A stretch of DNA of 40,690 nt from Octopus sinensis (Eukaryota): positions 1-40,690 of the forward strand of contig NW_021835901.1 in assembly GCF_006345805.1 (NCBI RefSeq). Reading direction: 5' to 3'. The notes below the pieces were generated by a model, which worked only from the letters and a program-made list of their open reading frames with translations, ran no database searches and was not told where the DNA came from. The position numbers and the translations under genes are program-made. The number at the start of each line of letters is the position of its first letter. Position 1 is the first letter of the stretch. Below, in pieces: positions 4,200 to 28,385 of the stretch.

Positions 4200-4283
4200 A
4201 TGGATGTAAATAAGATTATAAGCAAGATTCAGAATGGAGACTTTGAAGATGTTGAACGGCTTATCAAAGAAAATCCTGATAAA
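4200..4283 (+). CDS. Coding exon 1 ([28 protein letters not shown]), N-terminal ankyrin cap
   Basis: TCAAAAG|ACATG acceptor; AAA|GTAAGT donor; ends phase 0. Confidence 0.8.
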
Positions 4284-7119: not shown

Positions 7120-7187
<68 letters not shown>

Positions 7188-7566
7188 TATATATATTAAA
7201 AATATAAGTTTATGAAAGAATGGAGTTGAACGACTTAACAAATATCCTTTATTCTCGACATATGTTTCGAAGGCTGCATATTCCTAATTCTCGAAACATA
7301 TATTTCGAAAATAAAGGAAATTTGTTAACAAGTCGTTCAACTCCATTCTTTCATAAACTTATATTTTTTAAATAAACATACAAATTTCCGCACGAAAGCA
7401 CGTAGTCGATGCCCTAGGGACGTAACTTCAACCGTGTTCTTTCTGATGTGAATTTGCTACCCAGGTATCGGTTATCTTTCGAATTATCCTTAATAAGATA
7501 ATTCATTCAACTACTCAAATATATATATATATGTAAATATATATATATATATATATATGTATGTAT

Positions 7567-7647
<81 letters not shown>

Positions 7648-10600: not shown

Positions 10601-13455
10601 GATTTTGGAAGACATTCACCGAACAATTGACCAAACTTGTTGATATGACTGGTGAGTCTTCGAGCTCCTGTCAACGAATATTGAGCGAGGAATTGCAAAT
10701 GAAAAGTGTTGCAGCAAAATTTATGCTTCACTTGCTCACAGAAGATCAAAAGCATTCATGGTTGAATGCATTTCGTGAACTGAAAAAACAGCTGGAAGTC
10801 AGTCGCTATCTTTTATCGAAGGTCATCAATAGTGACAAAATCTGGTGCTACAGAATTTGCAGGTGTGGAAGAGATGAAGAAAAATACGATTGATGCTTCG
10901 AGAGGCATCACTTTGCCAGTGTTCCAGCACTGCTTTGAATAGAGGAAAACGCGTCTGGATTAATGCATTGTTTCAAATGGGGGGATATTTTGAAGGTGAT
11001 AAAAGTGTTAATACGTAAAACTAAGCAAATAAAATAATATTGCAAAATTCCGGGTGCTTTTGGGTCCCCACCTCATATATAACTTAGATAACTTAGATAT
11101 GTTTCAACCAAAGATTGGTCCAGGCCATGTCTAACTTAATAGCACCACCTGACAGGATTATTCAAATCTTGTTTAAGTCAAGTTTTGTTTAAGTCAATTT
11201 TTGTTCAAGTAGTGAGTTCTTGTTGGGTGAGTTGTATCCAATTATGGGTGGCTTATCTGGTATTCTTTGAAGGAATCTATCCAGACTCCGTTTAAAGTTG
11301 ATGGGATCCTTTTCCTCTTTGATCTCCCTCGGGACAATGTTAAATAGGGCAGGGCCTGTTGAGGAAAAGAAATTATGTTGCAGTGTACATGTATGTTGTG
11401 ATCTTGAATTGGGCAGGGGACGTATGGCCCGTGGTCCCAGTGTTGGATGAACCTTGAAGCTAATGTTAAGGTCGTTTGGGCAAAGTTGGCGGTATATTCT
11501 CCACATCGTACAAATGATGTACCGCTATATAAATGTAGGATCCAAGGATTGATGGGTAGGAAGGTGAGCTTCAACCAATCCATAGAAAATTTTAAAAAAA
11601 ACTTTAAGGAACAAAACGGGTTTATTAGGGCTCCAGGTTGTTGATTTTTTCCTTATTGAATCTTCTGTATGTTAACCTGTGCCTCTCCTATTGACAGTGT
11701 AAACTTCTTTTAATGAAGATACGCTTGGTCTGAAGAGTAGCCAGTGGTATACACCTCACCTGGATAGTTACCAGTTTCGATGTTCCGCTTGCTTTGAAAC
11801 ATACGTAGCCCAGATTTTATCTACACTATTCCTTCACTCATATATTTATGTATGTATATATATACATATATATATATATATTTTTTACTACCCCCAAGGG
11901 GCCAAAAACAGAGGGGACAAACAAGGACAGACAAACGGATTAAGTCGATTACATCGATCCCAGTGCGTAACTGGTACTTAATTAATTTATCGACCCCGAA
12001 AGGATGAAAGGCAAAGTCGACCTCGGCGGAACATGAACTCAGAACGTAACGGCAGACGTAATACGGCTACACATTTCGCCCGGCGTGCTAACGTTTCTGC
12101 CAGCTCGCCGCCCTATAAAGAATACAACAGGGGTCACCACCACCCCCTGCCGGAGCATCGTAGAGTTTTAGGTGTTTTCACTCAATAAACACACACAACG
12201 CCCGGTCTGGGAATCGAAACCGTGATCTTCCAATATATATACATGTATAGTCACATATGTATAATATGTATTTGTGTGTATGTAATTATTGATGTAATTT
12301 GGTTATAATGACCTAATTACATTTGTTTTAATTAATCTAATTATAATTATTTATTTCCTTTCCTCTTTCTATAACTTTCAGGCAACACCATAATGTGGTG
12401 GCTGCAATGCTGGCCCAGGTTAGTTAACAAATACATAATTATATCCTGTCTTTAATATTCAATATTAATATCATCAAAATACCAGTGAAATTCTGGGGGT
12501 AGGTTTAATCAACTTCACTGCAGCAGCCTTTAAACAGCAGGTCTTGGGTCTGTGAAGAATAATTATGTTGGTGATAACAATGATGATAGTAGTAGTGGTG
12601 GTGACAGTCCAACTGACCACCACTGCTGACAGTACTATCTTCAATGGTCAGACAAAACAAGGTCATTATAAATTCAACACATATATATCAGATTATATAT
12701 ATTATCATCATGATGTATGTATGTATGTATGTATGTATGTATGTATGTATGTATGTATGTATGTATGTATGTATGTATGTATGTCAGGTCACTTTCTAGG
12801 GCTACTGGTAACATGTAACCCAGTACAACCTGTTGCATGGTCGGGTCGTCGACGACTAAACCGGCAACCCCACCAAGCTTGCTTGGTGAGGAGGGTGTTT
12901 ATTGGACACCCTGTGGGATGAAAAACAAAACCCGTCAAAGGGTGGGGGAACTCTTGAGAGTCAACGGCCATCCAATAAATGTCTTAAGGCTGTATCATGC
13001 GTGGGGACATAGAAATAATCTGAATACCCGATTGCGCGGTTAAATCATTGAGAGTGAAGGACTCCTAGCCTTTGTTAGGGCATCCTTCTAGGAGAAGGTA
13101 ACTCAGGTAACTGGGATAACGCTGACATAAAACCTGCGGCTCAGTGGTTACCGATGATGTTGACTTTTTCTTCTTTTCGGATTATGGCTGCTGTTGCTTA
13201 GTGAGTGGGATTGACTCAGTGCACAGCCTTTCCTCACTTTAAAAAAATCTCCTTGCAAAGGCATTGCACGATAACAACATTGATTAAGCTTCGTGCAATG
13301 GCCATACTCGATAACGAGGGGGCAGCCACCATGTATGTATGTATGTATGTATGTATGTATGTGTGTGTGTGTGGGTATGTATGTATGTATGTATGTATGT
13401 ATGTATGTGTGTGTGTATGTATGTACGTATGTATGTGTGTGTGTGTGTGTGTATG

Positions 13456-13489
<34 letters not shown>

Positions 13490-13517
13490 TGCATGTATGT
13501 ATGTATGTATGTATGTA

Positions 13518-13554
<37 letters not shown>

Positions 13555-13559
13555 ATGTA

Positions 13560-13592
<33 letters not shown>

Positions 13593-13607
13593 ATGTATGT
13601 ATGTATG

Positions 13608-13641
<34 letters not shown>

Positions 13642-14847
13642 TGTATGTATGTGGTGTATGTATGTATGCATGCATGTATGTATGTATGTATGTATGTATG
13701 TATGTGTGTGTATGTATGCATGCATGTATGTATGTATGTATGTATGTATGTATGTATGTGTGTGTATGTATGCATGCATGTATGTATGTATGTATGTATG
13801 TATGTATGTATGTATGTATGCATGCATGCATGCATGCATGCATGTATGTATGTATGTATGTATGTATGTATGCATGCATGCATGTATGTATGTATGTATG
13901 TATGTATGTATGTATGTATGTATGTATGTATGTATGTATGCATGCATGCATGTATGTATGTAGTGTATCGCCAATTGTTATGACGATACTGTTTACACAA
14001 TAACCTTGTAGTAACAAGAAAGCATATTCCGGAGCTGAGTAACAACAACTGTCCATTAAACACTCTGCGAGCTATACACGAACCGACAAACAGTATTACA
14101 AGAAACTATGAAAAGAACACCTTACGAATACCTGCAATTAACACCTACTCTCTCTGGTCTATCACACCTCTGCTATTTATAGGTAGCCAGTCAAGTCTGT
14201 TCCCGCAGGGGTTGTCATGATTCGCACCACAACATATAATCAACCCCAGGACTTATTCTTTGTAAGCCTAGTTCTTATTCTATCAGTAGCTTTTGCCGAA
14301 TTATGGGGACGTAAACACACCAGCATCGATTGCCAAGCAATGTTGGTGGGGACAAACACAGACACACAAACATACACTCTCACACACATATATATACATA
14401 TACGACGGGCTTCTTTCAGTTTCCGTCTACCAAATAAACTCACAAGGCTTTGGTCAGCCTGAGGCTATAGTAGAAGACACTTGCCCAAGGTGCCACACAG
14501 TGAGACTGAACCTGGAACCATGTGGTTGGTAAGCAAGCTCCTTACCACACAGCCACCCCTGTATATATATATTTAAAAAGAAAATTATTAAATAAATAAA
14601 TAAATAAATATATAAAAAATAAAAATAAAAATAAAATATATATATATATAAATTTATAAAAATAAATAAATTATTTTAATTTTTAACTTTAAATTTAAAT
14701 AATTTAAATTTTAAATTTTGTATTTTATATATTTTGTATATTATATTAATTATTTTTATTTCTATGTTTTGGTTTATGTTTTTCACTGTTTGATTTGCCT
14801 AATATTGGTTTTATCTCTAATTCAATTTATATATATATATATATATA

Positions 14848-14901
<54 letters not shown>

Positions 14902-14921
14902 ATATATAATATATATATATA

Positions 14922-15000
<79 letters not shown>

Positions 15001-15102
15001 ATATGTATATATATACATACATATATATATGTATATATATATATAATATATATATATGTATATATATATAATATATATATATATATCTATATATATATAT
15101 AT

Positions 15103-15141
<39 letters not shown>

Positions 15142-15291
15142 GTATATTATATATATATATATATATAATATATATATTATATATATATATGTATATATAT
15201 ATATAATATGTATATATATATATATTGTATATATATATATAGATATATATATATTATGTATATATATATAATATATATATATATATGTATG

Positions 15292-15359
<68 letters not shown>

Positions 15360-15431
15360 TATAATATATATATATGTATATATATATATATATGTATATA
15401 TATAGTATATATATATATATGTATAGATATA

Positions 15432-15478
<47 letters not shown>

Positions 15479-16966
15479 ATGTGTGTGTGTATCTCACCTC
15501 CATAACATTCATGTATGTGTGTGTGTATGTACAGGAATGTTAAGGATGTGGACACTAACCAACTCACCTGTTTTATGAACCCCTTATTAATATAGCAACA
15601 TCATAATTCTTCTTTACTAGTTTTGATCTGCTAATTATATGTTCACTCTTGTTCTGCTCCCCTAAAATTTTCTATAGTGAGAGATAAATATAGATTAGGC
15701 TGAAACAATCTGTTTAAGACCCCTTAATAGATTTATCATGTTCCTAACACATATCCATAGCATGATATAGAGAGACCGTACAGAAGGTTGTCCTCACTAA
15801 CAAACATCAAATGTACATGATCAGGTTGATCAAGTACCCAGTAGAAGACAACAATGACACATCCACCCTAATTTTCATGTACATTTTCAATTTCTATTTT
15901 TACTTCCACAAAGGATTCAGTGAAACTGGATACTGAGAACAATCGTAAAAGAACACCCTTACTGGAAGCCGTGTCTGCAGCCCACCTCGGAATAATCCAT
16001 GACATTATCACGCACGGTGCAAACATGAATGCCATCGACAATGATGGCAATAATTGTTTGCACCTTTCCATAATAAGGAAAGAGATATTCCATTCTGAGG
16101 TGGAACCCATTCCCATTTTAGATGAGGTAAGTTTTAAAAATTGTTTGTGAATATATGTGTGTGTGGTTGGCATTAGGAAGGGCATGCAACCGCAGAGACT
16201 ATGCCAAAACTGGCAATTGGTGCCTGAGCAGCTCTGCAGCTGCCCAGCTTCTGCCAAACTATCCAACCCATGCCAGCATAGAAAACGAATGTAAAATGAT
16301 GATGAGGAGGATGTGTGTATGTGTGAGAGAGAGAAATAGAGAAACAGGCAGACATTGTTTGCTATTTTCTTTCACTCCCATCCACTTCTCTTCCTTTAGT
16401 ATTAAATAATTCAGTTTCTCCTGATAGCACTAGTTGTATTATGTAACTAACAATATTCCATCTCCTTTCAACTTCAAAAACGTGGCCACTCCACTGTAAA
16501 GAAGGTAACCCATCTTGGATATTGGTCATATAAACACTGCCATCACATATAAAGGAGAGGTGACCAATGACAGAGATGCAGGGTAGAGTAGAGTTCTTTG
16601 TGAGATGAAAGATGATAAACCTTTATAATGCTGGTTAGGGTTAGGCTGACATAATCCAGAACATTCTATGAAGAATGTTCTCTGAAACAGCTCTCTATCA
16701 CACCTCGCCATTAGATTCGAGAGCTATATTTTCATAGTGTTACTCTTTTTTACCCTTTTTACTCTTTTACTTGTTTCAGTCATTTGACTGTGGCCATATT
16801 GGAGCACCGCCTTTAGTCGAGCAAATCGACCCCAGGACTTATTCTTTGTAAGCCCAGTACTTATTCTATCGGTCTCTTTTGCCGAACCGCTAAGTGACGG
16901 GGACGTAAACACACCACCATCGGTTGTCAAGCAATGCTAGGGGGACAAACACAGACACACAAACAT

Positions 16967-17065
<99 letters not shown>

Positions 17066-20000
17066 CATATATACGACAGGCTTCTTTCAGTTTCCGTCTA
17101 CCAAATCCACTCACAAGGCATTGGTCGGCCCGGGGCTATAGCAGAAGACACTTGCCCAAGATGCCACGCAGTGGGACTGAACCCGGAACCATGTGGTTGG
17201 TAAACAAGCTACTTACCACACAGTGACTCCTACGCCTATGTTTTTATTTTTCTAGTTTTTTGTGTTGATTTTAAGCTACTTTTGTTGTTCTAAGCTTATG
17301 ATTATTATTATTATTATTATTTACAGAAGTTTTACTCTCCACCGCTTCCTCATTTAATGTATGTTTGTTTGTTTGAAAGACCTCAGCATCTATCCACTGC
17401 TAGATCTGATGGTGTTTATTGTCTGTTGTTGCAGAATTTAAGCAACTCTTTGATTCCCTAATATGTAACGGTCACTACAGATGTGTGGCTGTATTTCAGA
17501 CAGTTGATGGTCACCTATGTATTGTTGTAATGTCTTCTTTGGTGAGAAGAAGTTACTCTAGCAGTCAACGACCCATTATTATAGGAATTGTCTATCAGAC
17601 TAACAGTTTCAACAATTTCTTGACTATAATGTGTTGGTGTGTTGCCTCAACCACCACACCAATCTTTACTTCACTTCATCAGCCAAAAATGTTTCTTTAT
17701 AAATTTTGGAAACATTATTGATATGCTTGGATATGTCTGTCTGGTGTTGGTTTTGTTGCTGTGTCTGAAGAAATTATTATGTTCTTGGTGTTCTCTGTTC
17801 ATTGTTTGTTGTTATGGAAATGAGTTGCACTTAGTGACCAGTGAATCGTTTCCCAATCAATATTTGGATTATCGAAATTACTAGTAGGAAAATATGAGTG
17901 ACTACTTTCATAGATGCAGATCTGAAGATGTCAAAAATCTGAGTTTTGATGGCAGTTTTGCAGATGGTAAACAAATTCAAGTAGGAGTATATATGTTGTT
18001 AAAGAAATACTTCTTGTTGCGACCAGTTAAAATCTCCACAAGGAATTACAGAAAATCTTGAGTGACCACAGACCACCAGACGACCCCCATGGTAATTAGA
18101 ATGGCCTTTGTGTAACAAAATGTAGCTTGCCATTGTTTGTTGTTATGTTGTTGTGTTATATTTATATATACAATACTCTTCCATAAGTATTTCTTTTGTT
18201 ATGGCCAGTTGGCTTTATCAAGCCAGTTGTAAAGATAGGTTCTTGTTGGTTTGTTGTGTTCTGTTATTTGTGATACTTGTTCCATTATATTTCCTACATT
18301 TGACATGATTTGTTTATCTACAATATATATTTGTGTAATATTCTACTCATCGTTTTATATTTCATCATTTGCAGTGCTGCAAAGAGCTCCCACTGGACGA
18401 GGATAGAAGGCTCTCTGGAATTGTAGTTTTGAGTTATCTTGCCAACCAAGGAGCCAGCTTATACCATCGTAATAATAAGAATATGACCCCATTGGACTAC
18501 ATAAAAAATCAACTTTTAAAAGAAAATTTACAAACATTTTTACGATCACTGTAAGTACTCAGATAAACCAGGACATTTTCTCTTTTGTATATAATCATGT
18601 TTATATGTTTATTTAGTTTGAATTCTCCCAATGTATTATTCCGTCAAACATACATATCGTATATAATTAATTCTCAGGGCTTTGTTCAATGTTAGAAGGG
18701 AAACCTGTTTTGTTACCTGGTATCAGCCTGGTTACTTTTGATCAGGCATCAAAAGTCGTGGCACCCACTGAGCTGAAACCTTCGACATGCCAAGTTCGTT
18801 ATGCAGAATGTTCTCAACTTATTCACGGGAGAGTTTCCTACAGCATTAGTTATCTTGATTAATTTTTAAATGTCTGCCGTCCATTACTGTGTGGTGAACA
18901 TGGTCAATGTTTTCTTGGGTGGTGGCTGTGGCAGGACGTCCAGACCTTGGGTCATCTTCAAGACTTTTCCTACCTCTCTTGAATTCAGTTGCCCATATTT
19001 GCAGAGTTGATAAAGCTGGAGCATCATCCCCTAATGTAGCAACCGTGTCAGCATGAATGACCTTGTGGGGGCTAACCCCTTTTTCTGCAGATATCTGATA
19101 ACACCATGGTGACAAATTTTATCCATTTTCACAAAATGTCTCTAGTGCCACTTTTGCAAGCCCTCAATTCTGATTCCTATGTGGGTTTATCTGGAAAGAA
19201 AAAATGCAATTCGCATCAGTAAAGGTTGAATTTAATGCGTGCCAAGTTTAATTACTGTATGATAATTCCTCCTTAGTCAGCCTATAATATTTTCAGCCCA
19301 CCCTTGTATGTGTATGCTAATGTGACACTTGTATGCACACAAATCTGCTTGTATGTAATTGTTTACAGAAGAATTTACGATGTACTCTTGCTGGTTACTG
19401 TTGTGCCCCTTAATATTCTGTACTCTAAACATGTCCACAACGAAATATTTTATTATAAATGAATGTTAATGATGGGATGTGTTAATATTTTGTTCCACAG
19501 GTGTCGGTGGTGTCAAGAGAAAAAGGCTACTGTCACACTCCATCCATGTCAACATACTGTTATTTGTCAGAATTGCTGTTCTCAAATGACATTTAAGCAA
19601 TGCCCCATATGTCGACAACACATACACAGCAAAAGTGGATTTGGTAAGAACATTCTTTCTTGATCTGTCTGTTGTCTCATTAACTTTCTGGTATGGAATA
19701 ATGCACTTCATATTGTAGTGGAGACATGCAACTCCTTGTTTGTAACTATATATTATTAACACTTGTTATAATGTTTGCCATCCTTTTAGACATTTTATAC
19801 TCACACTCGTTAGTTTTTAGATGTGATTAATGCTAAAAGAGACATTGTTTTCTGACTCTTTCACCTTTTGGCTTTACTTTTGAGTTGATTCGTTTTAATT
19901 CGAACATGAAGCCTGGTCATTGCTCCAAGGTGGTATCAGAAAGTTCACGGACTAGTTCTGTAGCATGCCAACAGATGGCAGCACACCGTTCAGCACACAG

Positions 20001-23000
20001 TGAGAGCTAGCAATGACTTTCATGAGGCAGTGTGCTGGGTGACACCACTGCGTTTACTTCAAAAGTTGTGAAATTTGTGCTTTTGTGGTCATTTGTAGGC
20101 TGTAGTCTGCAATTTTCTAATGGGCAGGAACAAATAACCAATGTGAAATTTTGTGTTAAACTTGTCCAGCAAAGACATAAGAAAGAAGCAACAAAACTAA
20201 GAGAAAAAGAATGTTATGAAGTGATAACTAAGTGAGAGAATTTCAGAATTGTTAGATTAGTATATAGGATGTCTTAAGAGAACGATGAGATTTAGAAAGG
20301 CTTACCCATTTTGTTCTTGTTGTAAATATTGAACTATTATATAGTAACAGCTTAGAAAGTGTTGACCGAAAGCATAGTGGTCACCAATTGACTATTGATG
20401 ATATGAATGCCTTACAATAATGGAATATAGATTATTAAAAGAGACAAAGAAATTTTACTATGAAGTATAAAACTCTGAAATGCTTATTTCAGTGTGTCCA
20501 AAGTTTGAAGAGAAAGCAGTCCAGGCGGTTGTAGAGTCTGTTGGTGAGTATAAAATAACTGTAATTGATTTCTATAAATTTTACCTTCACCTGAGATGTA
20601 TTATTTGTGTGAATGACTGAGAACAGGTTCCATTCTTAATTTCCAATTCTTATTTCAGAGTGTCCAAGGTGTAGAGAAAAAACAGTCAAGACGGTTGCAG
20701 AATCTTTTGGTGAGTATAAAATAACTGTAATTGATTTCTATAAATTTTACCTTCACCTGAGATGTATTATTTGTGTGAATGACTGAGAACAGGTTCCATT
20801 CTTAATTTCCAATTCTTATTTCAGAGTGTCCAAGTTGTAGAGAAAAATCAGTCAAGACGGTTGTAGAATCTTTTGGTGAGTATAAAATAACTGTAATTGA
20901 TTTCTATAAATTTTACCTTCACCTGAAATATATTATTTGTGTGAATGACTGAGAACAGGTTCCATTCTTAATTTCCAATTCTTATTTCAGTGTTTCCAAA
21001 GTCTGAAGAGAAAGTAGTCAAGACGATGGTAGAATATTTTGGTGAGTATAAAATAACTGTAATTGATTTCTATAAATTTTACCTTCACCTGAGATGTATT
21101 ATTTGTGTGAATGACTGAGAACAGGTTCCATTGTTACATTTCTTTCGAATGGTTAGCAATAAAAGTAATCTATTCTCTACCTAAAAATGCAAGAATATCC
21201 AATAAAGGGGTTTTATGAGACACAGGAAAAATGTCTTTCACGATAAGGAAAAAATACAAAAGATGAAATATAAACCCCGAAGCGGTTCTCTACCCTTAAT
21301 GAGACACATTCACTTTTCTCTCATCTCATTGTTGTCTCCCTCCCCCCCTCTCTCTCTCAGCATCTACAAGTAGCAGCCTCTAGTTTCCAGTCGTGTAACA
21401 ACATGAATTATATTTAAAATATTGATATTACAGAAATTTAATAAAATGTCCAGCAGTGTTGGCCCTGTTGCTAAAATGGTTAAATTAGAAAAAAAACAAA
21501 ACAATAGAGTTAATATTGTGTTTTGAATGAAGGAAGAAAAACATTTTGTTGTTTAATGGTAAACAGGTGAGTTAATGACAGTGTTTGTTTGTTGTACATT
21601 TTCAATAAGTTTACTGATTATTGTTGTTGATGTTCTTGTTGAACAAGATGGTTAAGTTGAAAGCTTACAAGTGTGATCACCCTGTCTTTTTTTTCACTGT
21701 TAGTAAATCTATCATTACATCCATTAAAACGATGTCTTTGTCCAAGTAAGAAGCTTTGGTCTGCTGCTGAGACAATTGCTCTCTCTCTCTCTCTCGCACT
21801 CTCTCTCTCTCTCTCGCTCTCTCCTTAAGGCAGACATTGGCTGCAAGATACAATACAATCGATGTTATTGTCCTCATCATTTATAGTCTGCTCTCCTTGC
21901 TTCCATGTAATGGATGGGTGATCACTGTCCAAGTCAGTTCTTATTCAGAGTTACTGTCCCCCTTGACTGCTTGAGAAACACATCTCCCTTAAACATTCCA
22001 CCTTTTCTATAGTGGGATGCCCCCCCCCCCACACCAACCACTTCATAAAGAGTCCTGAGTACATTTTAATGTGGCACAAGTACTAGAAAGATTTTCATGT
22101 GTCCAACATTGAAACTGGAATAGCTGTAGGTTGCACACTATCAATCACTTGGTTTGTGCTTGTTATGGGGATCGGCAGATTTATGAGAAGAAATTACTCA
22201 GGCAAAATCACCTAAGAAGACATTCATGGATGACATAAAAATGCTAACAAGAGATCCAAAGTATATGCAATCAGTCCTAGATAGATTGGATGGACTAATT
22301 AATTGCTCAAGAATGCTGTTTGAAACAAATAATGAATGCATTCTGACATTTGTGAAAGGTCAACAGAAGCAAGTGAAGTTCAAAATAGCAGGAGAAACGA
22401 TGTGAAAGGTTAAAGAGTAACTTGTAAAATGTTTTGGACTGTGGTAGACGATCTCATTGTCCGATAAGAGTAGAGGCATTGATGTCATTGCGGAAACCGA
22501 GGATGGGCAATAAGCATTTGCCAAGTCAAAACTTCTGGGCAAAAACAAGATTTGGTGCTTGAAGTTTGATCTATATCACCATCTTGATAATATATTCTTA
22601 AATATCACTTCTTTTGTACCATTTCAGATGTTTTTCCTTTGCGAAAATCTGTGTATATTTGAATGTTGTTAAAGATGTTTTGTGCAAGTATACAGTGTTT
22701 TAGGATACTTGCTATCACTTTCTGTTTCACCTGTGTAGAACTAATCATTGCTCATCAGGAAAGAAAAGCATTTCATTAAGGAGTCCTTAAATATTTCCTG
22801 AATCAGATGAAATTCTGGTGAACTGTGAGTTGCATAGTTTAAAATTAAAGATTAAAAGCAGCAACGTTTGACAAAGATAACAGGTGTGACATGAGTTTGT
22901 GTCAAGGTCGTTGATGACCAGCTTGGTTGACATCAGAATTAAGCAAAAGATGAGGGGAATGTTGATTAAGTGAAGTCCAGTGGTGAGGGGACAATGCCAT

Positions 23001-24301
23001 GTCATAGGTTTAGCATGGATATAAGAGAGAAGAAAGATAAAAGGTGTTAACATGTGATCATTAAATAAGATGATTGCAACATTGTTAGATTAAGTAGGAT
23101 GTCTTAATAGAAAAAGGAGGCTTAGGAAGGTCAGTCTATTTTGTTATGGACCTAAATATTGAGCCATTATATAGGACCACTGTAGGCAGTATAAAAGTGC
23201 CAACCGAACCTATAGTGGTCAGAAGTTGTCCATTTATGATAGGAATGTCTTACAATAATAAAATATAAACCATTAACAGAAACGGGAAATTATGCTATGA
23301 AGTGTAAAATTTGGAAATATTTATTTCAGATTCTATAATGGTAGAGGAGAAGCATCTTCATAGGGTGTCCCAAAAGTTGGGAGGTAAATGGATGGTACTT
23401 GGTGAGTATAAAATACCCAATTTCTATAAATTTTGCTTTCAGCTAAACTTTTGTTTGTTTGAATGACTGAGAACAGGTTCCGTTCCTAATTTCCAATTGA
23501 AAGTTTAGCTATAAAGTAAAGCTATCACTGAAATTTCATAAAATATCTACGGACGTCAGCACGGTTGTAAAATGTATAAATTAGAAGGTCCAGTAGAGTT
23601 AATACTATCGTTTGTAAAAGGGGACCCCAAAATATTGTTGTTTAAGAATAAACAGGTGAATTAATGACAATGTTTTTGCTTGTTTACACTTTTAGTAAGT
23701 TTACTGGTAGGGTGTTGTTGTTGATGTTTATTTCGGCAGATATCGGCCTTAATCTGGCAGAATTAAGAGGAAAGGGTCCCAGATGTGCCATCACTCTTTC
23801 TCTTGGGGGAAGAGGACCATACTATCAAACACTTCTTCTGCCAGTTGTTCACCAGACATTTTCTCATGTGTAATTTTCAATGAATTTTTTTTTAAATTCT
23901 TCTCCTTCTCCAGCCTTTATTTCAAATTGTTTGGTATTTTTATCAACATCTTTAGAGATAGATAACAATGTCTTCTAATGTCCCTGTTTCTTAAGTATTT
24001 CTCATTCTTCTATTCACATAATTTCTTTGTCGTAATTAATACAGATTTTATATTATCATTAATGCTGTTGCAATTAATTCTCATTTCTTTTGCAGGAAGG
24101 GAATTAGGAATTCAACAAAATGACCTGGAAACCATCAAGCATGACCATACTGGTAACACTATGGAACAAGGCTTCCAGATGCTGCTCAAATGGTTTCGAA
24201 GTAATGACCCAGCGAAACGTAGACTTCAAATATTAAAAAAAGCTCTTGTAAGAACTGAATGTTATGAGGCACACGAATATTTATCATCAGAATTCAATTG
24301 A
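4200..24301 (+). CDS. Spliced gene (14 coding exons, about 600 aa): Mind-bomb-like ankyrin repeats + RING finger + 4x17-aa repeats + Death domain; putative E3 ubiquitin ligase/adaptor
   Basis: Exons 4200-4283, 6181-6332, 7761-7917, 9057-9415, 12382-12418, 15914-16126, 18375-18550, 19501-19643, 20493-20543, 20659-20709, 20825-20875, 20991-21041, 23330-23401, 24096-24301. All introns are GT-AG, phases match, and the total is 1803 nt with no internal stop. Shows TPLH ankyrin motifs, C3HC4 RING spacing and a Death-domain pattern (LG..W..LGRELG...EQ.FQML.KW). Confidence 0.88.
4440..4730 (-). mobile_element. Degenerate LINE reverse-transcriptase fragment (CR1/Jockey-like)
   Basis: [13 protein letters not shown]...[12 protein letters not shown] resembles the RT pattern ALD.SKAFD.VW...INSGVPQ. 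Confidence 0.6.
5205..5474 (+). mobile_element. SINE/retroposon 3' portion with (GAT)n tail (family D)
   Basis: Internal repeat TGCCAGCCTCG...GGCACGTA; CCAACCCATGC...GATGATGAT tail; related pieces at 16160-16305 and 25094-25151. Confidence 0.7.
5478..5760 (-). repeat. AT-rich dispersed repeat, inverted copy of the 7960-8370 family
   Basis: TAGGCAAATCAAACAGTGAAAAACATAA is the reverse complement of the motif at about 8310, 14775 and 28700. Confidence 0.8.
6181..6332 (+). CDS. Coding exon 2, ankyrin repeats
   Basis: Polypyrimidine tract + CAG; [12 protein letters not shown]...[19 protein letters not shown]; AA|GTAAGG donor, phase 2. Confidence 0.92.
7195..7510. mobile_element. Second palindromic Penelope-like terminal-repeat fragment
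   Basis: Inverted arms about 7197-7270 and 7290-7370. Same downstream sequence (CAAATTTCCGCA...CGTAACTTCAACCGTG...TTTGCTACCC) as 129-440. Confidence 0.5.
7761..7917 (+). CDS. Coding exon 3, ankyrin repeats
   Basis: TTTCAG acceptor; [18 protein letters not shown]; CAG|GTTAGC donor; phase 2 to 0. Confidence 0.92.
7960..8370 (+). mobile_element. AT-rich dispersed element headed by a hammerhead motif (Penelope-derived or retrozyme-like)
   Basis: Shares TTTATGTTTTTCACTGTTTGATTTGCCTA with three other copies in the window; hammerhead motif at 7993-8087. Confidence 0.6.
7993..8087 (+). ncRNA. Minimal type I hammerhead ribozyme motif with weak stem I
   Basis: CTGAAGA at 7995-8001; stem II TGACTATAAC/GTTATGGCCA extended by TAATTCGAATT/AATTCGAATTA; GAAA at 8072-8075; palindromic ACGTACGT; GUA site at 8083. 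Confidence 0.6.
8445..8867 (+). mobile_element. tRNA-derived SINE, family A, full length
   Basis: A box GTGGCTGTGTGG, B-box-like GGTTCAGTCCC, internal microsatellite, AAAAGAGT tail; five copies in the window. Confidence 0.85.
9057..9415 (+). CDS. Coding exon 4, about 3.5 ankyrin repeats
   Basis: TTTTAG acceptor; four TPLH motifs at 34-aa spacing; AA|GTAAGT donor; phase 0 to 2. Confidence 0.93.
10160..11075 (+). mobile_element. Internally deleted mariner (Tc1/mariner) transposon
   Basis: TIRs CGAGAGGGGTACCCAAAAGTAACCG / CGGGTGCTTTTGGGTCCCCACCTCA flanked by TA. Broken transposase: [50 protein letters not shown]. Confidence 0.88.
11189..11550 (-). mobile_element. 3' end fragment of a CR1/L2-group LINE
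   Basis: [18 protein letters not shown]...[16 protein letters not shown] is a typical LINE ORF2 C-terminus. Confidence 0.75.
11726..11812 (+). ncRNA. Degenerate minimal hammerhead ribozyme motif
   Basis: GGT-CTGAAGA (11730-11736); stem II AGCCAGTGG/CCGCTTGCT; GAAA at 11796-11799; near-palindrome ACATACGT; GUA; then GCC. Confidence 0.5.
11885..12112 (-). mobile_element. SINE family C
   Basis: Minus strand begins GGCGGCGAGCTGGCAGAAACGTTAGC (tRNA-like head); GACCCCGAAAGGATGAAAGG core; second copy at 39725-39901. Confidence 0.8.
12131..12230 (-). mobile_element. SINE family B fragment
   Basis: Reverse complement matches about 39985-40080. Confidence 0.75.
12382..12418 (+). CDS. Coding exon 5 (37 nt, [13 protein letters not shown]), completes an ankyrin repeat
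   Basis: TTTCAG acceptor, CAG|GTTAGT donor; supplies the phase 2 to 0 bridge needed between exons 4 and 6. Confidence 0.8.
12786..13330 (+). mobile_element. Non-coding dispersed element, probably RTE-derived, embedded in (TATG)n
   Basis: GC-richer block between two (TATG)n tracts; TAGGGCATCCTTCTAGGAGAAGG recalls RTE 5' UTR motifs (from memory). Confidence 0.4.
13331..13960. repeat. Compound (TATG)n/(TG)n/(CATG)n microsatellite
   Basis: Directly visible; explains the spurious HTYI/MYVC ORFs. Confidence 0.97.
14239..14561 (-). mobile_element. SINE family A
   Basis: Reverse complement of about 8447-8800. Confidence 0.85.
14570..14826 (+). repeat. AT-rich dispersed repeat (7960-8370 family)
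   Basis: TTTATGTTTTTCACTGTTTGATTTGCCTAATA motif. Confidence 0.75.
14827..15490. repeat. Long imperfect (TA)n microsatellite
   Basis: Directly visible. Confidence 0.97.
15914..16126 (+). CDS. Coding exon 6, ankyrin repeats
   Basis: [20 protein letters not shown]...[17 protein letters not shown]; GAG|GTAAGT donor; phase 0 to 0. Confidence 0.9.
16160..16305 (+). mobile_element. Family D SINE 3' fragment
   Basis: TGGTTGGCATTAGGAAGGGCAT...CCAACCCATGCCAGCAT...ATGATGATG, as at 5330-5474. Confidence 0.7.
16741..17236 (-). mobile_element. SINE family A, full length, with expanded internal (TA)n
   Basis: Reverse complement of 8445-8867. Confidence 0.88.
18375..18550 (+). CDS. Coding exon 7, last (Mind-bomb-like) ankyrin repeat
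   Basis: TTTGCAG acceptor; [28 protein letters not shown]; CT|GTAAGT donor; phase 0 to 2. Confidence 0.9.
18846..19307 (-). mobile_element. Mariner 5' remnant
   Basis: [24 protein letters not shown] (mariner HTH linker); TIR-like TACAAGGGTGGGCTGAAAA at about 19307. Confidence 0.8.
19501..19643 (+). CDS. Coding exon 8, C3HC4 RING finger (MIB/IAP-type spacing)
   Basis: CRWC...[12 protein letters not shown]...CPICR; CCACAG acceptor; G|GTAAGA donor; phase 2 to 1. Confidence 0.93.
19926..20165 (+). mobile_element. Mariner 5' remnant
   Basis: TIR-like AAGGTGGTATCAGAAAGTTC; [12 protein letters not shown] transposase start. Confidence 0.55.
20493..20543 (+). CDS. Micro-exon 9 (51 nt, [17 protein letters not shown])
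   Basis: TTATTTCAG acceptor, G|GTGAGT donor, phase 1-1, open frame. Confidence 0.75.
20659..20709 (+). CDS. Micro-exon 10 (51 nt, [17 protein letters not shown])
   Basis: Same splice signals as exon 9, phase 1-1. Confidence 0.7.
20825..20875 (+). CDS. Micro-exon 11 (51 nt, [17 protein letters not shown])
   Basis: Same splice signals as exon 9, phase 1-1. Confidence 0.7.
20991..21041 (+). CDS. Micro-exon 12 (51 nt, [17 protein letters not shown])
   Basis: Same splice signals as exon 9, phase 1-1. Confidence 0.7.
22110..22580 (+). mobile_element. Degenerate Hero-like (R2 group) non-LTR retrotransposon RT fragment
   Basis: [15 protein letters not shown]...[11 protein letters not shown]...[15 protein letters not shown]...FKIAGE...[12 protein letters not shown], with in-frame stops. 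Confidence 0.7.
23330..23401 (+). CDS. Coding exon 13, start of Death domain ([24 protein letters not shown])
   Basis: TTATTTCAG acceptor, G|GTGAGT donor, phase 1-1; joins exon 14 to give [13 protein letters not shown]. Confidence 0.88.
24096..24301 (+). CDS. Coding exon 14, remainder of Death domain and stop codon
   Basis: TTTGCAG acceptor; [33 protein letters not shown]...ILKKAL; TGA ends at 24301. Confidence 0.92.
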
Positions 24302-24479
24302 ATTTCTTTGCAAATTGTTGCTGTTGCTTAGTCGCAAGTCTATCTTCACCACAGACCTATTATCAAATGCCTTCCATCCAGGAGCATCCTGTCTTTTTCC
24401 TAAGTATAGAGAACGTAGAACCACATTGTTTAATGTGTCCTTCTTTAAGGTGATAAGTTCTGAATGGAGTAGGGTTTGG

Positions 24480-25370
24480 GGATCTTTACCTTTTGACCGG
24501 CAGATTTAGAAAATAATTTTTTGGAACTGAATACTTTCATACTTCGTATTCTGGTAGAATGTGTCGTATAAAACTTTTTTTACTCTTAGCATTTTTGAGA
24601 AAAGTTTATATTTACGAAGTTATTCCGTGTTAAATTTGTCGTATTTCAGTAATTTCAACCAATCAATGATGTGTATTCAGCTGAATAAAATTACTGCCGT
24701 TGTTTGTTAACAACAACTTCCGGAGGTGTATATTTTGTTTGTCACTGTTATTTATGACATATTTCATCTCAGTTATGTTTGTATGAAAAACGTGTGTATC
24801 TGCAACGTGTTTACTTCATGGCACCGCTATAATCGTTCGTGCATTTCTACTGGTTTTAGTTATTTTTTCCTGTTTTTCAGCTACTATTTTTGGAAAGACT
24901 TTTTTAACCCTAACCCTAAAACCCTATCCCTAACACTAAATCCCTAGCCCTAACACTAAAACCTTAACTCTAACCCCAAAACCTTAACCCTAACCTTAAA
25001 ACCTTAAAGCTAAAACTAGTACAAACGCACGAACGATGTCATAAATAACAGTGACAAATGAAAAATACACCGCCGATAGTTGTTGTTGACAAACATCATC
25101 ATCATCGTCATCATCATCCTTTAACGTCCGCTTTGCATGCAAGCATGGGTTAGCAGTAATTTTATTCAGCTGAATACACATCATTGATTGGTTGAAATTA
25201 CTGAAATACGACAAATTTAACACGAAATAACTTCGTAAATATAAACTTTTCTTAAAAACGCTAAGAGTAAAAGATGTTTTATACGACACATTCTACCAGA
25301 ATATGAAGTTTGAAAGAATTTAGTTACAAGAAATTATTTTCTAAATCTGCCAGTCAAAAGGTAAAGATCC
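24480..25370. mobile_element. Non-autonomous long-TIR (foldback/MITE-like) DNA element with internal telomere-like repeats
   Basis: ~280-bp TIRs beginning GGATCTTTACCTTTTGAC; flanks GGGTTTGG / GGATTTGG (8 bp, 1 mismatch); degenerate (TAACCC)n at 24905-25015. Confidence 0.85.
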
Positions 25371-26576: not shown

Positions 26577-28363
26577 TGGCATCCTTTCTGTCTCGGGAGA
26601 CAATGGAGTTGCGCATTTTTTTTTTCTAGGTCTAGTCCGGCTGTTATATTTTATTTCCTGTTACATTTCTTGCTGTGGCTGTGTAGTCCTATCCTGGACA
26701 AACACTCCCTCTGGCAGGTACTGCAAATGTAGCGAAGACTGTTCCTGGCTGGTTGTAGTGCCATGGTCTCTTGTTTATGTCTCTTCCTTTCTTTCCATTT
26801 CTCCTCTCTCTTTCTGTCACTCCTCTGTATACCCTCTTTTACTGTACGTCGCCATTCTCCACGGTTGCCGGCGACTGCCTCCCAACCGCTAATGTTGATG
26901 TTGCAGGCCTTCATATCCCTTTTGCAAACATCCTTGTAACGCAAGATCGGTCTACCCACAGACCTAGTACCCCTAGCAAGCTCTCCGTAGAGTATGTCCT
27001 TGGGGATTCTGCCATCTTTCATACGGCTAACATGCCCAAGCCATCTCATACGTCTTTGTGTGAGGAGTGCAAACATGCTTGGTATTCCTGCTTGCCTGAG
27101 GACATCTTTGTTGGGGATATGATTCTGCCATTTGATGTGGAGGATTTTTCGGAGGCAGCGCAGGTGAAAGATATTTAGGCGACGCTCTTGGCGTGTGTAT
27201 AGCGTCCAGGTCTCGCTTCCATACAGTAGAGTGCTGAGTACACATGCCTGGTAGATCTTCATTTTTGTGGTCTTAGTCAGCTTATTGTTGTCCCAAGCCC
27301 GTTTGGAGAGTTGGGCCATCGCAGCAGCTGCCTTGCCAATGCGTATATTGAGCTCAGCGTCAAGGGATAGGTTGTAGGTGACGGTAGAGCCCAGATAGGT
27401 AAACTTCTCCACCTCTTGTAATGTGTGGTCTCCAATATGTATGTTTGGGATGTCCGATGTAGCCTGGCCCATGATGTTGGTCTTCTTAAGGCTGATAGCT
27501 AAGCCAAAGTCGTTACATGCTTGCTCAAAACAGTTAATGAGCCTTTGGAGGGCTTCTTCTGTGTGTGTTACCAGAGCGGCATCATCAGCAAATAACATCT
27601 CCTTGATCAGGACGTTTCTGATTTTGGTCTTGGCACGCAGGCGCGAGAGATTGAACAGTTTCCCGTCACTTCTACTGTGCAGAAACACTCCATCATCTGA
27701 TGTCTGAAAGGCATGTGACAGCAAGAGTGAGAAGAAGATGCCAAACAATGTAGGAGCGAGGACACAGCCTTGCTTTACCCCGTTTTTTATTTGGAAGGCG
27801 GCTGATGTTGAACCGTTGTGCTGTATGGTGCCTTGCATGTCATCATGGAAAGACTTGATGATCCTCAGCAGCTTTGGTGGACATCCGATTTTTTGGAGCA
27901 GGAGGAAGAGGCCTGTTCTGCTTACCGAGTCAAAAGCCTTTGTTAGATCAATGAAGGCCATATATAATGGCATTTTCTGCTCTCTGGACTTCTCCTGAAG
28001 TTGGCGTATGGAGAATATCATATCGATAGTTGATCTGCTTCTTCTAAAGCCACACTGCGATTCCGGATAGATTCGAGAAGCAAGTAGTTGTAGCCTGGCC
28101 AGGATAACGCGGGCAAAGGTCTTTCCAACAGTGCTTAGAAGGGATATACCACGGTAATTGTTACAATCACCACGGTCACCTTTGTTTTTGTAGAGCGTAA
28201 TGATGTTGGCATCCCGCATATCCTGAGGGACTGTACCCTCTTCCCAGCACTGACACAGAAGCTCATAAAGGTGCCGAAGCAGGATGGTGTTTTTGCCGGC
28301 TTTGATGATCTCTGAGGGGATGCCGTCTTTTCCCGGAGCCTTATTTCTTGCTAGGGAGTCAAC
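26571..28363 (-). mobile_element. 5'-truncated RTE-clade LINE inserted in (TA)n
   Basis: Uninterrupted frame from 28363 (NKAPGKDGIP) to the stop at 26651; short 3' UTR; (TA)n on both sides. Confidence 0.93.
26651..28219 (-). CDS. RTE LINE reverse transcriptase (N-terminally truncated) with C-terminal Cys/His motif
   Basis: NYRGISLL, QCGFR, FIDLTKAFD, GVKQG, LFADD, YLGS, RWLGHV, CSTC...HSH..C. Confidence 0.9.
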   Translation of the reverse strand: MRDANIITLYKNKGDRGDCNNYRGISLLSTVGKTFARVILARLQLLASRIYPESQCGFRRSRSTIDMIFSIRQLQEKSREQKMPLYMAFIDLTKAFDSVSRTGLFLLLQKIGCPPKLLRIIKSFHDDMQGTIQHNGSTSAAFQIKNGVKQGCVLAPTLFGIFFSLLLSHAFQTSDDGVFLHSRSDGKLFNLSRLRAKTKIRNVLIKEMLFADDAALVTHTEEALQRLINCFEQACNDFGLAISLKKTNIMGQATSDIPNIHIGDHTLQEVEKFTYLGSTVTYNLSLDAELNIRIGKAAAAMAQLSKRAWDNNKLTKTTKMKIYQACVLSTLLYGSETWTLYTRQERRLNIFHLRCLRKILHIKWQNHIPNKDVLRQAGIPSMFALLTQRRMRWLGHVSRMKDGRIPKDILYGELARGTRSVGRPILRYKDVCKRDMKACNINISGWEAVAGNRGEWRRTVKEGIQRSDRKREEKWKERKRHKQETMALQPARNSLRYICSTCQRECLSRIGLHSHSKKCNRK

Positions 28364-28385
28364 ATATATATATATATATGGATCC

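Follow-up and report, generated by a model that had tools for sequence, protein, structure and literature searches.

Spliced 51-nt cassette exons in an octopus ankyrin-RING-Death gene family, probably derived from a duplicated Death-domain helix exon

Introduction

Tandem exon duplication has reportedly been surveyed by Kondrashov and Koonin, and by Letunic et al. It is a known process through which alternative splicing is expanded (PMC9013439), and Exonize is one of the tools of the field (PMC12343006). Here we describe an array of four 51-nt exons found in Octopus sinensis, in a gene encoding ankyrin repeats, a RING finger and a Death domain. The gene lies on the plus strand of NW_021835901.1, an unplaced 40.7-kb contig of the 2.72-Gb genome which carries this one gene and was analysed over its full length of 40,690 nt (the window). 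The array sits between the RING exon and the 72-nt exon encoding helix 1 of the Death domain. We estimate at about 0.8 the probability that the 51-nt exons are spliced cassettes originating from a duplicated, shortened and amplified copy of the helix-1 exon, probably serving as a variable linker between RING and Death domain. The term micro-exon is restricted to about 30 nt or less in strict usage, and extends to 51 nt in wider usage; the exons described here are at the upper bound of the wider definition.

The array shares with tandem exon duplications, as characterized in the sources above, adjacent homologous exons with homologous flanks, the same phase, a length multiple of three and alternative splicing. 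It differs from the tandem alternative exons treated there because copies are not mutually exclusive, as all four and the parent exon are found in RNA contigs, and because the duplicate apparently lost length and a domain motif, and then gave rise to arrays of 1 to at least 9 units among paralogs. In the COE/EBF helix-loop-helix proteins a duplicated exon encodes one helix (PMC2394523). There too, a single-helix exon of a helical domain was tandemly duplicated, is present in mRNA, and adds a helix-like segment beside the domain. The COE/EBF duplicate, as portrayed in that study, is one extra copy, mandatory and conserved, whereas the octopus copies are truncated, numerous, variable and optional.

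Micro-exon genes (MEGs) contain runs of short symmetric exons. The array in the window resembles them in this respect. Schistosome MEGs also vary the protein by alternative exon inclusion, and feature a fast-evolving coding part (PMC4350168), as does the array. MEGs, as described there, encode secreted proteins and are made almost wholly of exons of 6-36 nt. In contrast, the octopus 51-nt array is set within a cytoplasmic multidomain protein, and can be traced back to a domain exon.

Many members of the octopus family are named Mind bomb 2 (MIB2) by NCBI. In MIB1 and MIB2 the ankyrin repeats are preceded by MIB/HERC2 domains and a ZZ zinc finger, and MIB2 is not known to have a Death domain. 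MIB2 ubiquitylates RIPK1 and cFLIP in TNF death signalling (PMC5912950, PMC7815719). Octopus proteins and MIB2, as presented in those reports, have in common ankyrin repeats followed by a C-terminal C3HC4-type RING, and MIB2 is an E3 ligase acting on death-fold complexes. The octopus proteins differ because they have a Death domain of their own. Only Ank families, RING and Death were identified in a Pfam scan of the family proteins P0003, P0004 and P0007 at E <= 0.01; since neither MIB/HERC2 nor ZZ domains were found, the protein is not a Mind bomb orthologue. A full-text literature search retrieved no description of the ankyrin-RING-Death family, or of its exon arrays. What appears new is the set of successive stages that can be traced, the apparent move of a single-helix exon out of the Death domain and into a linker array, and the divergence of exons over introns in a plausibly octopus-specific family.

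Flanks shared by micro-exons and helix-1 exon

The exons of the gene are listed below. P0003 is the NCBI model 'putative ankyrin repeat protein RF_0381 isoform X2 [Octopus sinensis]' (583 aa), and gene models for the locus are already present in the NCBI automatic annotation.

About 4200 to 18551, plus strand: ankyrin-repeat exons
19501..19643, plus strand: RING-finger exon (zf-C3HC4_3, Pfam E 3.3e-11 on the open reading frame, ORF), ends in phase 1 and splices to micro-exon 1
20493..20543, plus strand: micro-exon 1 (exon 9), 51 nt, phase 1-1, 17 residues
20659..20709, plus strand: micro-exon 2 (exon 10), 51 nt, phase 1-1, 17 residues
20825..20875, plus strand: micro-exon 3 (exon 11), 51 nt, phase 1-1, 17 residues, left out of P0003
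20991..21041, plus strand: micro-exon 4 (exon 12), 51 nt, phase 1-1, 17 residues
23330..23401, plus strand: Death-domain exon 1 (exon 13), 72 nt, phase 1-1, 24 residues, located by tblastn of P0003
24096..24301, plus strand: Death-domain exon 2 (exon 14), rest of helix 2 through helix 6, and stop codon

The micro-exons are spaced regularly, and homologous intron sequences are found around the array (copy A) and around Death-domain exon 1 (copy B).

20479..21142, plus strand: tandem array of four 166-bp units (TRF period 166, 4.0 copies, 92% matches, score 1116)
20199..20492, plus strand: upstream intron flank of the array (copy A), homologous to 23034-23329 by blastn
23034..23329, plus strand: upstream intron flank of Death-domain exon 1 (copy B), by blastn
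21415..21634, plus strand: distal downstream flank of copy A, homologous to 23512-23728 by blastn
23402..23728, plus strand: downstream intron flank of copy B (23402-23498 and 23512-23728)

Each 166-bp unit includes approximately the last 10 nt of an acceptor site, the 51-nt exon and about 105 nt of downstream intron. By gapped blastn, 20199-20648 matches 23034-23498 at 69.8% over 480 columns (E 6e-52, 190 bits), with three ungapped blocks at 72-77% between 20202-20445 and 23035-23283. Past the array, 21415-21634 matches 23512-23728 at 71% over 226 columns (E 2e-25, 102 bits), and every one of the four units matches 23399-23498/23519 at 75-81%. The best score obtained with 50 mononucleotide shuffles of the copy B segment was 31 bits, versus the 190 and 102 bits observed. 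When the exons and 30 nt of their flanks are aligned together, the 72- and 51-nt exons are set apart by one 21-nt gap near the exon 3' end, the exact site of which is an alignment choice; the last 8 nt of the exon and the donor GTGAGTATAAAATA are kept. Neighbouring homologous exons, homologous flanks, the same phase (all five exons, the four micro-exons and Death-domain exon 1, are in phase 1-1) and a length multiple of three are the features by which tandem exon duplications are recognized, and all are found in the window. Given the shared intron flanks, the 51-nt exons likely descend from a shortened copy of the helix-1 exon. All cassettes of the family described below, 51, 72 or 78 nt long, are multiples of three and in phase 1-1, and therefore any subset of them may be included without breaking the frame.

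The initial annotation of the window had claimed that the introns upstream of exons 9 and 13 align, and that 21 nt were lost in frame, and both statements agree with the alignments. The homology which it noticed between the downstream introns at 21430-21640 is also real, and covers 21415-21634 in the blastn alignment. The motifs GTGAGTATAAAATA..TTTCTATAAATTTT..GAATGACTGAGAACAGGTTCC assigned to this region are indeed common to both copies, but are located directly after the exons (20544 onward, 23402 onward), in a stretch distinct from this second homologous block.

Splicing of the micro-exons

Contigs of four public runs (X1, X4, X6 and X12), from four studies and under two organism labels, were placed on 19400-24400; that these runs are RNA is a guess from their records, and spliced joints are seen in them. 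Canonical GT..AG joints are found at every micro-exon boundary. Joints 20543|20659 and 20709|20825 occur in runs X1, X4 and X6, joint 20875|20991 in all four, joint 21041|23330 in X4, X6 and X12, with a loose end at this site in X1, and joint 23401|24096 again in all four. At the end of the RING exon (19643), loose ends in X1 and X4 continue into TGTGTCCAAAG. In X1, a contig of depth 116.6 runs through three consecutive joints and the full 51-nt exons between them, and exon bins are about ten-fold deeper than intron bins. Skipping events were also detected, joint 20543|20991, which omits exons 10 and 11, in X6 and X12, and joint 20709|20991, which omits exon 11 and corresponds to the NCBI isoform X2, in X1. 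P0003 accordingly carries micro-exons 1, 2 and 4 followed by the Death domain. It matches the window exons at 98-100% identity per exon, and at 100% for every exon from RING on (its residues 394-440 are 100% identical to the RING exon by tblastn).

NCBI models of O. sinensis and O. vulgaris include 1 to 6 repeats, and there are sets of isoforms differing only in the repeats included. P0003 has three cassettes and P0004 six, both in addition to the parent exon. In the O. vulgaris isoforms P0005, P0027 and P0048, RING is joined directly to Death-domain exon 2, and helix 1 is missing. The GT..AG joints, the skipping joints and the isoform sets, taken together, indicate that the micro-exons are genuine cassette exons. 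A cluster of mutually exclusive exons was considered and ruled out, because RNA contigs join exons 9-10-11-12 and 12-13, and proteins hold several cassettes along with the parent exon.

Distribution of the unit in the genome

The 244-nt upstream flank has at least 40 genomic matches among 176 candidates, 14 of them at 91-100%, the rest at about 70-93%. Twenty-five matching places were examined (20, then 5 further). At 14 loci besides the window, a high-identity flank is followed by an array of 166-bp units, and a flank copy of 70-75% identity is found 1 to 5 kb downstream, ahead of a 72-nt exon. In all 14 aligned array loci, and in L034, the unit has the same orientation and is upstream of Death-domain exons; at array loci the RING exon is matched upstream where detectable, and the last exon of the Death domain downstream. 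A 41-nt pattern taken from the start of the array intron (up to 2 mismatches allowed) hits the genome 57 times, versus 0 hits with a reversed control. All 57 hits fall in 15 loci; contig C27 accounts for five of these, and the other ten, the window among them, are on unplaced contigs. Some of the unplaced contigs are probably alleles of C27 loci, as exemplified by L017 and L022, which have identical peptide series.

Since all places examined have the context of a paralogous gene, the repeated flanks are a feature of the gene family, not a mobile element. The initial annotation held that its inference would be refuted if the shared flank were a dispersed repeat common elsewhere in the genome; the flank does occur in many places, but every place examined hosts the same exon unit in a paralogous gene. 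The opposite view, that a dispersed or mobile repeat carries or created the exon, as in transposon exonisation, is the least probable of all explanations considered in this work. Its attraction lies in the scatter of the 244-nt flank over many contigs and chromosomes, in the 105 matches of a related 78-nt cassette with the same flanks, and in the proximity of an ORF encoding a reverse transcriptase (26651-28384, minus strand). Yet, the many places reflect a large Octopus gene family, orientation and downstream Death-domain exons are constant in the 14 aligned loci and L034, and the array-type pattern is limited to 15 loci. Moreover, copies are in tandem, with periods of 166 bp, of about 0.86-1.1 kb, or of 2.0-2.65 kb, rather than scattered singly, and the unit includes no transposon protein or terminal repeat.

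A word-based protein search for the family retrieved 212 proteins at E <= 1e-5, and the top 76 among the hits listed are all from Octopus. The family members which it found are from O. sinensis, O. vulgaris and O. bimaculoides only, a weak hint that the family may be restricted to the genus Octopus.

History of the units

Arrays are present at 15 loci, and their size ranges from 2 to at least 9 units. The lengths recorded among loci are 2, 3, 3, 3, 4, 4, 4, 4, 4, 4, 5, 6, 7 and >=9, the longest array and the C12191 array both running into contig ends. The O. vulgaris counterpart has six units, three of which encode peptides identical to those of window units 2, 3 and 4. The nearest relative of a unit is found in another array in 39 of 61 cases, and in its own array in 22. 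The more distant paralogs L025, L028, L029 and L030 have a single 51-nt copy.

A maximum-likelihood tree was built from the flanks of 45 units after removal of the exons; the row L029_7174, a chance regex match, was excluded. A single clade (94/85) unites the 51-nt units of 17 loci; L030 joins it weakly (84/12), and the single-copy loci L025, L028, L029 and L030 sit beside the multi-copy arrays. Of the true helix-1 exons, one set (L027 and the ETPKLEEK type) groups with the 51-nt clade (90/81).

Stages intermediate between the parent exon and the arrays are found within the family. In seven loci (6 of them in the tree), a degenerate 72-nt copy, ESLNLEENRSHSTSKKVAVKQQQV, follows the array and precedes the true helix-1 exon, and a less decayed form of this copy, DSLKMEENHFHSTAKILSVKQQQV, is present in an O. 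bimaculoides protein. The 72-nt copy ASPKFADKGVQIDLQLLEPISEQS and the 51-nt copy in L030 are dead, because their donors now read TT and AT. L024 (G000 C2:61192000-61201999, minus) has three tandem helix-1 exon units spaced by about 1.1 kb, which form a clade of their own (100/100); two of them keep 72 nt and the LAQKW motif, whereas the third, shortened to 51 nt in an independent event, has a donor weakened to GTGTAT. Shortening has also gone further, since the 36-nt exon ECPKCKEKVESF, present in the second array units of L017, L018 and L022, and annotated as coding in proteins P0014 and P0017, corresponds to the 51-nt cassette minus 15 additional in-frame nt.

Other cassettes have the same surroundings. 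The cassette VNRTFEVKETQTLAEPV of another subfamily has the same flank, and [EG]APKFEDRCVQTEATCQELGAASQAI, a cassette of 78 nt in phase 1-1, shares flanks and donor with the first exon of the Death domain. The 78-nt cassette has at least 105 genomic matches, and forms arrays of 4-6 copies with a period of 2.0-2.65 kb at the following loci (L040-L046):

G000 C8584:1431-11833: array of the 78-nt cassette
G000 C11333:30252-43006: array of the 78-nt cassette
G000 C12007:1629-14360: array of the 78-nt cassette
G000 C29:95467-103117: array of the 78-nt cassette

The C11333 and C12007 arrays have the same peptide series, and may be two haplotypes. The process of exon duplication is old, recurrent across the family, and still running.

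We propose that a duplication within the RING-to-Death intron copied the helix-1 exon along with its flanks, and that the duplicate then lost 21 nt in frame (72 to 51 nt). The direction of the change is suggested by the requirement of the Death domain for helix 1, and by the occurrence of 72-nt copies in nearly every family gene examined. Copy number would have subsequently changed by unequal crossing-over between 166-bp units. As the unit includes only about 10 nt of the old acceptor, besides the exon and about 105 nt of intron, the new 115-nt introns need a branch point provided by what formerly was downstream-intron sequence. Flank homology, flank tree and RNA data uphold the order of events formulated in the initial annotation, namely duplication of the first Death-domain exon with its flanks, in-frame loss and tandem amplification. 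The intermediates which it invited to seek in paralogs and related species exist, as degenerate 72-nt copies and single 51-nt copies. The amplification is however not the single recent fourfold event then supposed, but an older process, in view of the 15 loci with 2 to at least 9 units, of the six units in O. vulgaris, and of the 39 units whose nearest relative is in another array. Parent, degenerate full-length, truncated, dead and freshly amplified copies coexist in one family, an unusually complete record of the birth of coding exons, and according to the RNA evidence the newborn exons are in use.

Two side observations concern the array loci. In the paralogs L011, L013, L014, L015, L019, L020 and L021, identity to the window is 94-98% over the RING exon, the upstream flank and the array, but drops to about 70-75% over the spacer and the Death-domain part, which are of another clade (ETPKLEEK type). 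Such mosaics point to putative recombination or gene conversion between family members. In L014 (G000 C10718), the last array unit (oriented positions 2696-2887) contains an internal tandem repeat of about 58 bp, in three copies, made from intron sequence.

Diversity of exons and introns

Diversity was measured in 61 array units, obtained from 69 aligned rows by setting aside six true helix-1 exons, L025 and L029. Nucleotide diversity is 0.156 in the 51 exon columns, versus 0.051 in 85 intron columns (Mann-Whitney p 1.8e-5); within the array of the window the figures are 0.206 and 0.012. The difference persists when only the first units of 14 loci are compared, pi being 0.129 in the exon, 0.028 in the 250 nt upstream and 0.047 in the 95 nt downstream (p 2.5e-5), with 19/51 segregating columns in the exon versus 56/345 in the flanks (Fisher p 9e-4). 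The upstream flank of first units is unique, and for this reason could not be homogenised within the array. The 51-nt exon is intact in 52 of the 61 units; none of these 52 contains a stop codon, and they encode 40 distinct peptides, in which C2, P3, E7, E15 and S16 are near-invariant. The excess of exon diversity is not seen in the 78-nt arrays (22 units), where exon diversity is 0.053 versus 0.040 and 0.026 in the flanks (p 0.42), and an excess of exon over intron diversity common to all cassette arrays was rejected.

Death-domain exon 2 was compared between the window (24096-24301), L012, L016, L017, L018, L022 and L034, using as flanks 270 nt of intron and 178 nt downstream; the close paralogs among these may be alleles. 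Window and L022 differ at 27/204 exon sites versus 22/444 flank sites (p 4e-4), L022 and L018 at 28/204 versus 2/443 (p 5.5e-13). The ratio of nonsynonymous to synonymous divergence (dN/dS) is 4.6-5.6 in three close pairs, and 0.5-1.2 in other pairs, in which dS is far above intron divergence. The RING exon has no excess divergence (3/143 versus 5/400). Gene conversion from another paralog was evaluated as source of the divergent exon 2 of L018 and discarded, as the best of the 36 other matches is at 86%, and no near-identical donor is found in the assembly. These patterns might reflect diversifying selection on the Death-domain part and on the 51-nt cassettes, possibly accompanied by intron homogenisation, though counts of synonymous sites are small.

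Exon-restricted diversity beside homogeneous introns is known in MHC genes, snake venom PLA2 and conotoxins. In the octopus family, likewise, Death-domain exon 2 and micro-exons differ between copies more than adjacent non-coding DNA, but the diverging part is a signalling domain of the cytoplasm, not a ligand-binding protein secreted or displayed at the surface. Selection, gene conversion of introns, or both, may account for the octopus pattern. Having exons more divergent than introns, the octopus ankyrin-RING-Death family stands out as fast-evolving, and is therefore a candidate for a role in innate-immune or cell-death signalling, processes about which little is known in cephalopods.

Structure and possible role of the cassettes

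Ankyrin repeats, RING and Death were all identified by Pfam in P0003. RING (zf-C3HC4_3, PF13920) covers residues 392-436 (39.8 bits, cut-off 27), and Death (PF00531) residues 499-578, matching profile positions 2-82 of 86 (36.2 bits, cut-off 22.6). The Death domain is modelled by AlphaFold2 as six helices (498-505, 509-518, 523-532, 537-551, 559-568 and 572-582), the block having a confidence score (pLDDT) of 84-91. Exon 1 provides helix 1 and the first half of helix 2; exon 2, which is recognized as Death by Pfam on the ORF (E 1.7e-5) and is matched at 100% by tblastn, has the same pLDDT of 84-91. The micro-exon peptides (residues 441-491) have no Pfam match; their kinship with the helix-1 exon is through the flanks, and they do not themselves belong to the Death domain. 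Micro-exon peptides and helix 1 have in common hydrophobic residues at positions 10, 13 and 17 (V, V, V and L, V, L, respectively), and the cassettes are devoid of the LGxxW segment which starts helix 2.

The cassettes most likely encode a tether, flexible or weakly helical, which links RING to Death domain and can be adjusted in length. By alternative splicing several tether lengths could be obtained from one gene, the array setting both length and surface of the tether. The whole protein is a predicted E3 ubiquitin ligase which, by analogy with MIB2, might be drawn to Death-domain signalling complexes, in this case by its own Death domain. If the cassettes have this origin and role, a single helix of a compact domain can leave the domain, and become a variable linker.

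Several data do not sit easily with this reconstruction. The RNA contigs were placed at 95% likeness, and some may derive from near-identical paralogs. Deep nodes of the flank tree are short, poorly supported and in several cases open, so that the order of the oldest duplications is unresolved, and the tree is unrooted, midpoint rooting having been used for drawing only. Nine of the 61 units have indels, some frame-breaking, all on small unplaced contigs where single-base assembly errors are visible in introns as well. In the AlphaFold2 model, obtained from a 16-sequence alignment, residues 440-479 have a pLDDT of 27-31 and do not pack on the Death domain, and consequently the model lends no structural support to any defined role of the cassettes. 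Lastly, pN/pS among the 52 intact units is 1.1 (pN 0.152, pS 0.139); the amino-acid sequence is therefore not under ordinary purifying constraint, and the cassettes could be tolerated filler.

The latter idea, that cassettes are selectively neutral in-frame filler endowed with good inherited splice sites, and drift in number by unequal crossing-over, is in our opinion possible but not probable. It agrees with the pN/pS value, with a pLDDT below 50 throughout the repeat region (residues 440-489), with a copy number free to vary from 1 to at least 9, with the skipping of units in NCBI isoforms and RNA joints, and with the 78-nt arrays, where exon and flank diversity are alike. Neutral exons are expected to be about as diverse as introns, however, and not three-fold more as the 0.156 versus 0.051 of the 166-bp arrays, or to exceed both flanks as in the first units of the 14 loci; the lack of stop codons in the 52 intact units, and the five near-invariant residues, also fit neutrality poorly. 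Were the cassettes instead mimics of helix 1, docking into their own or another Death domain to act in autoinhibition, swapping or as decoys, the descent from the helix-1 exon and the conserved hydrophobic spacing would be accounted for, and docking would be most expected in isoforms without the true helix-1 exon, such as P0005, P0027 and P0048 of O. vulgaris, left with a Death domain lacking helix 1. This is very unlikely, because only the C-terminal part of the last cassette is modelled as helical, in continuity with the Death domain, the rest being unpacked, because the LGxxW segment is missing, and because cassette sequences vary at most positions. The swap into the Death-domain fold envisaged in the initial annotation finds no support in the model, and the spacer role which it offered as alternative is the better guess.

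Even less credit is given to a third possibility, that cassettes with a CPxC motif could pair into CxxC...CxxC zinc knuckles extending metal binding on the RING side. Window units 2 and 3 (20659-20875) encode ECPRCREK and ECPSCREK, hence CPRC-x13-CPSC, and the CxxC-x13-CxxC arrangement formed by neighbouring units is a spacing seen in zinc knuckles. CPxC is present in many of the 40 distinct peptides, whereas ancestral-type copies have TPKL or SPKF, and the O. vulgaris counterpart has four consecutive CPxC units. Many units however have a single Cys, the pattern is not conserved between paralogs, and no confident fold was obtained from AlphaFold2. Returning to cassettes as a variable linker, it is tempting, though decidedly speculative and rather unlikely, to see the whole family as a lineage-specific diversity system derived from an E3 ligase, in which Death-domain exons diverge at many times the rate of their introns, and expandable helix-1 cassettes (51, 72 or 78 nt), independently amplified in many genes, are combined by splicing. 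Such a system would supply a repertoire of ligases with varied Death-domain specificities and tether lengths, following a logic similar to that of diversified families of innate-immune receptors.

Other features of the window

A Pfam scan of 67 ORFs of the window (at least about 60-90 aa) disclosed nothing further related to the cassettes. The ORF on the minus strand at 26651-28384 is 577 aa long and encodes a reverse-transcriptase domain (RVT_1, E 1.5e-34), which indicates a retroelement downstream of the gene. Just past the stop codon, an inverted repeat spans 24480-25370. Its arms, 24480-24697 and 25153-25370 (218 nt), are 94% complementary; an inner pair is formed by 24701-24765 and 25031-25095, and degenerate telomere-like TAACCC repeats are enclosed at 24905-25000. 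The structure is probably an element of the foldback type. Inside an intron, the kilobase at 13148-14105 has open stretches of 222-307 aa in each of the six frames, suggestive of a simple or low-complexity repeat with few stops.

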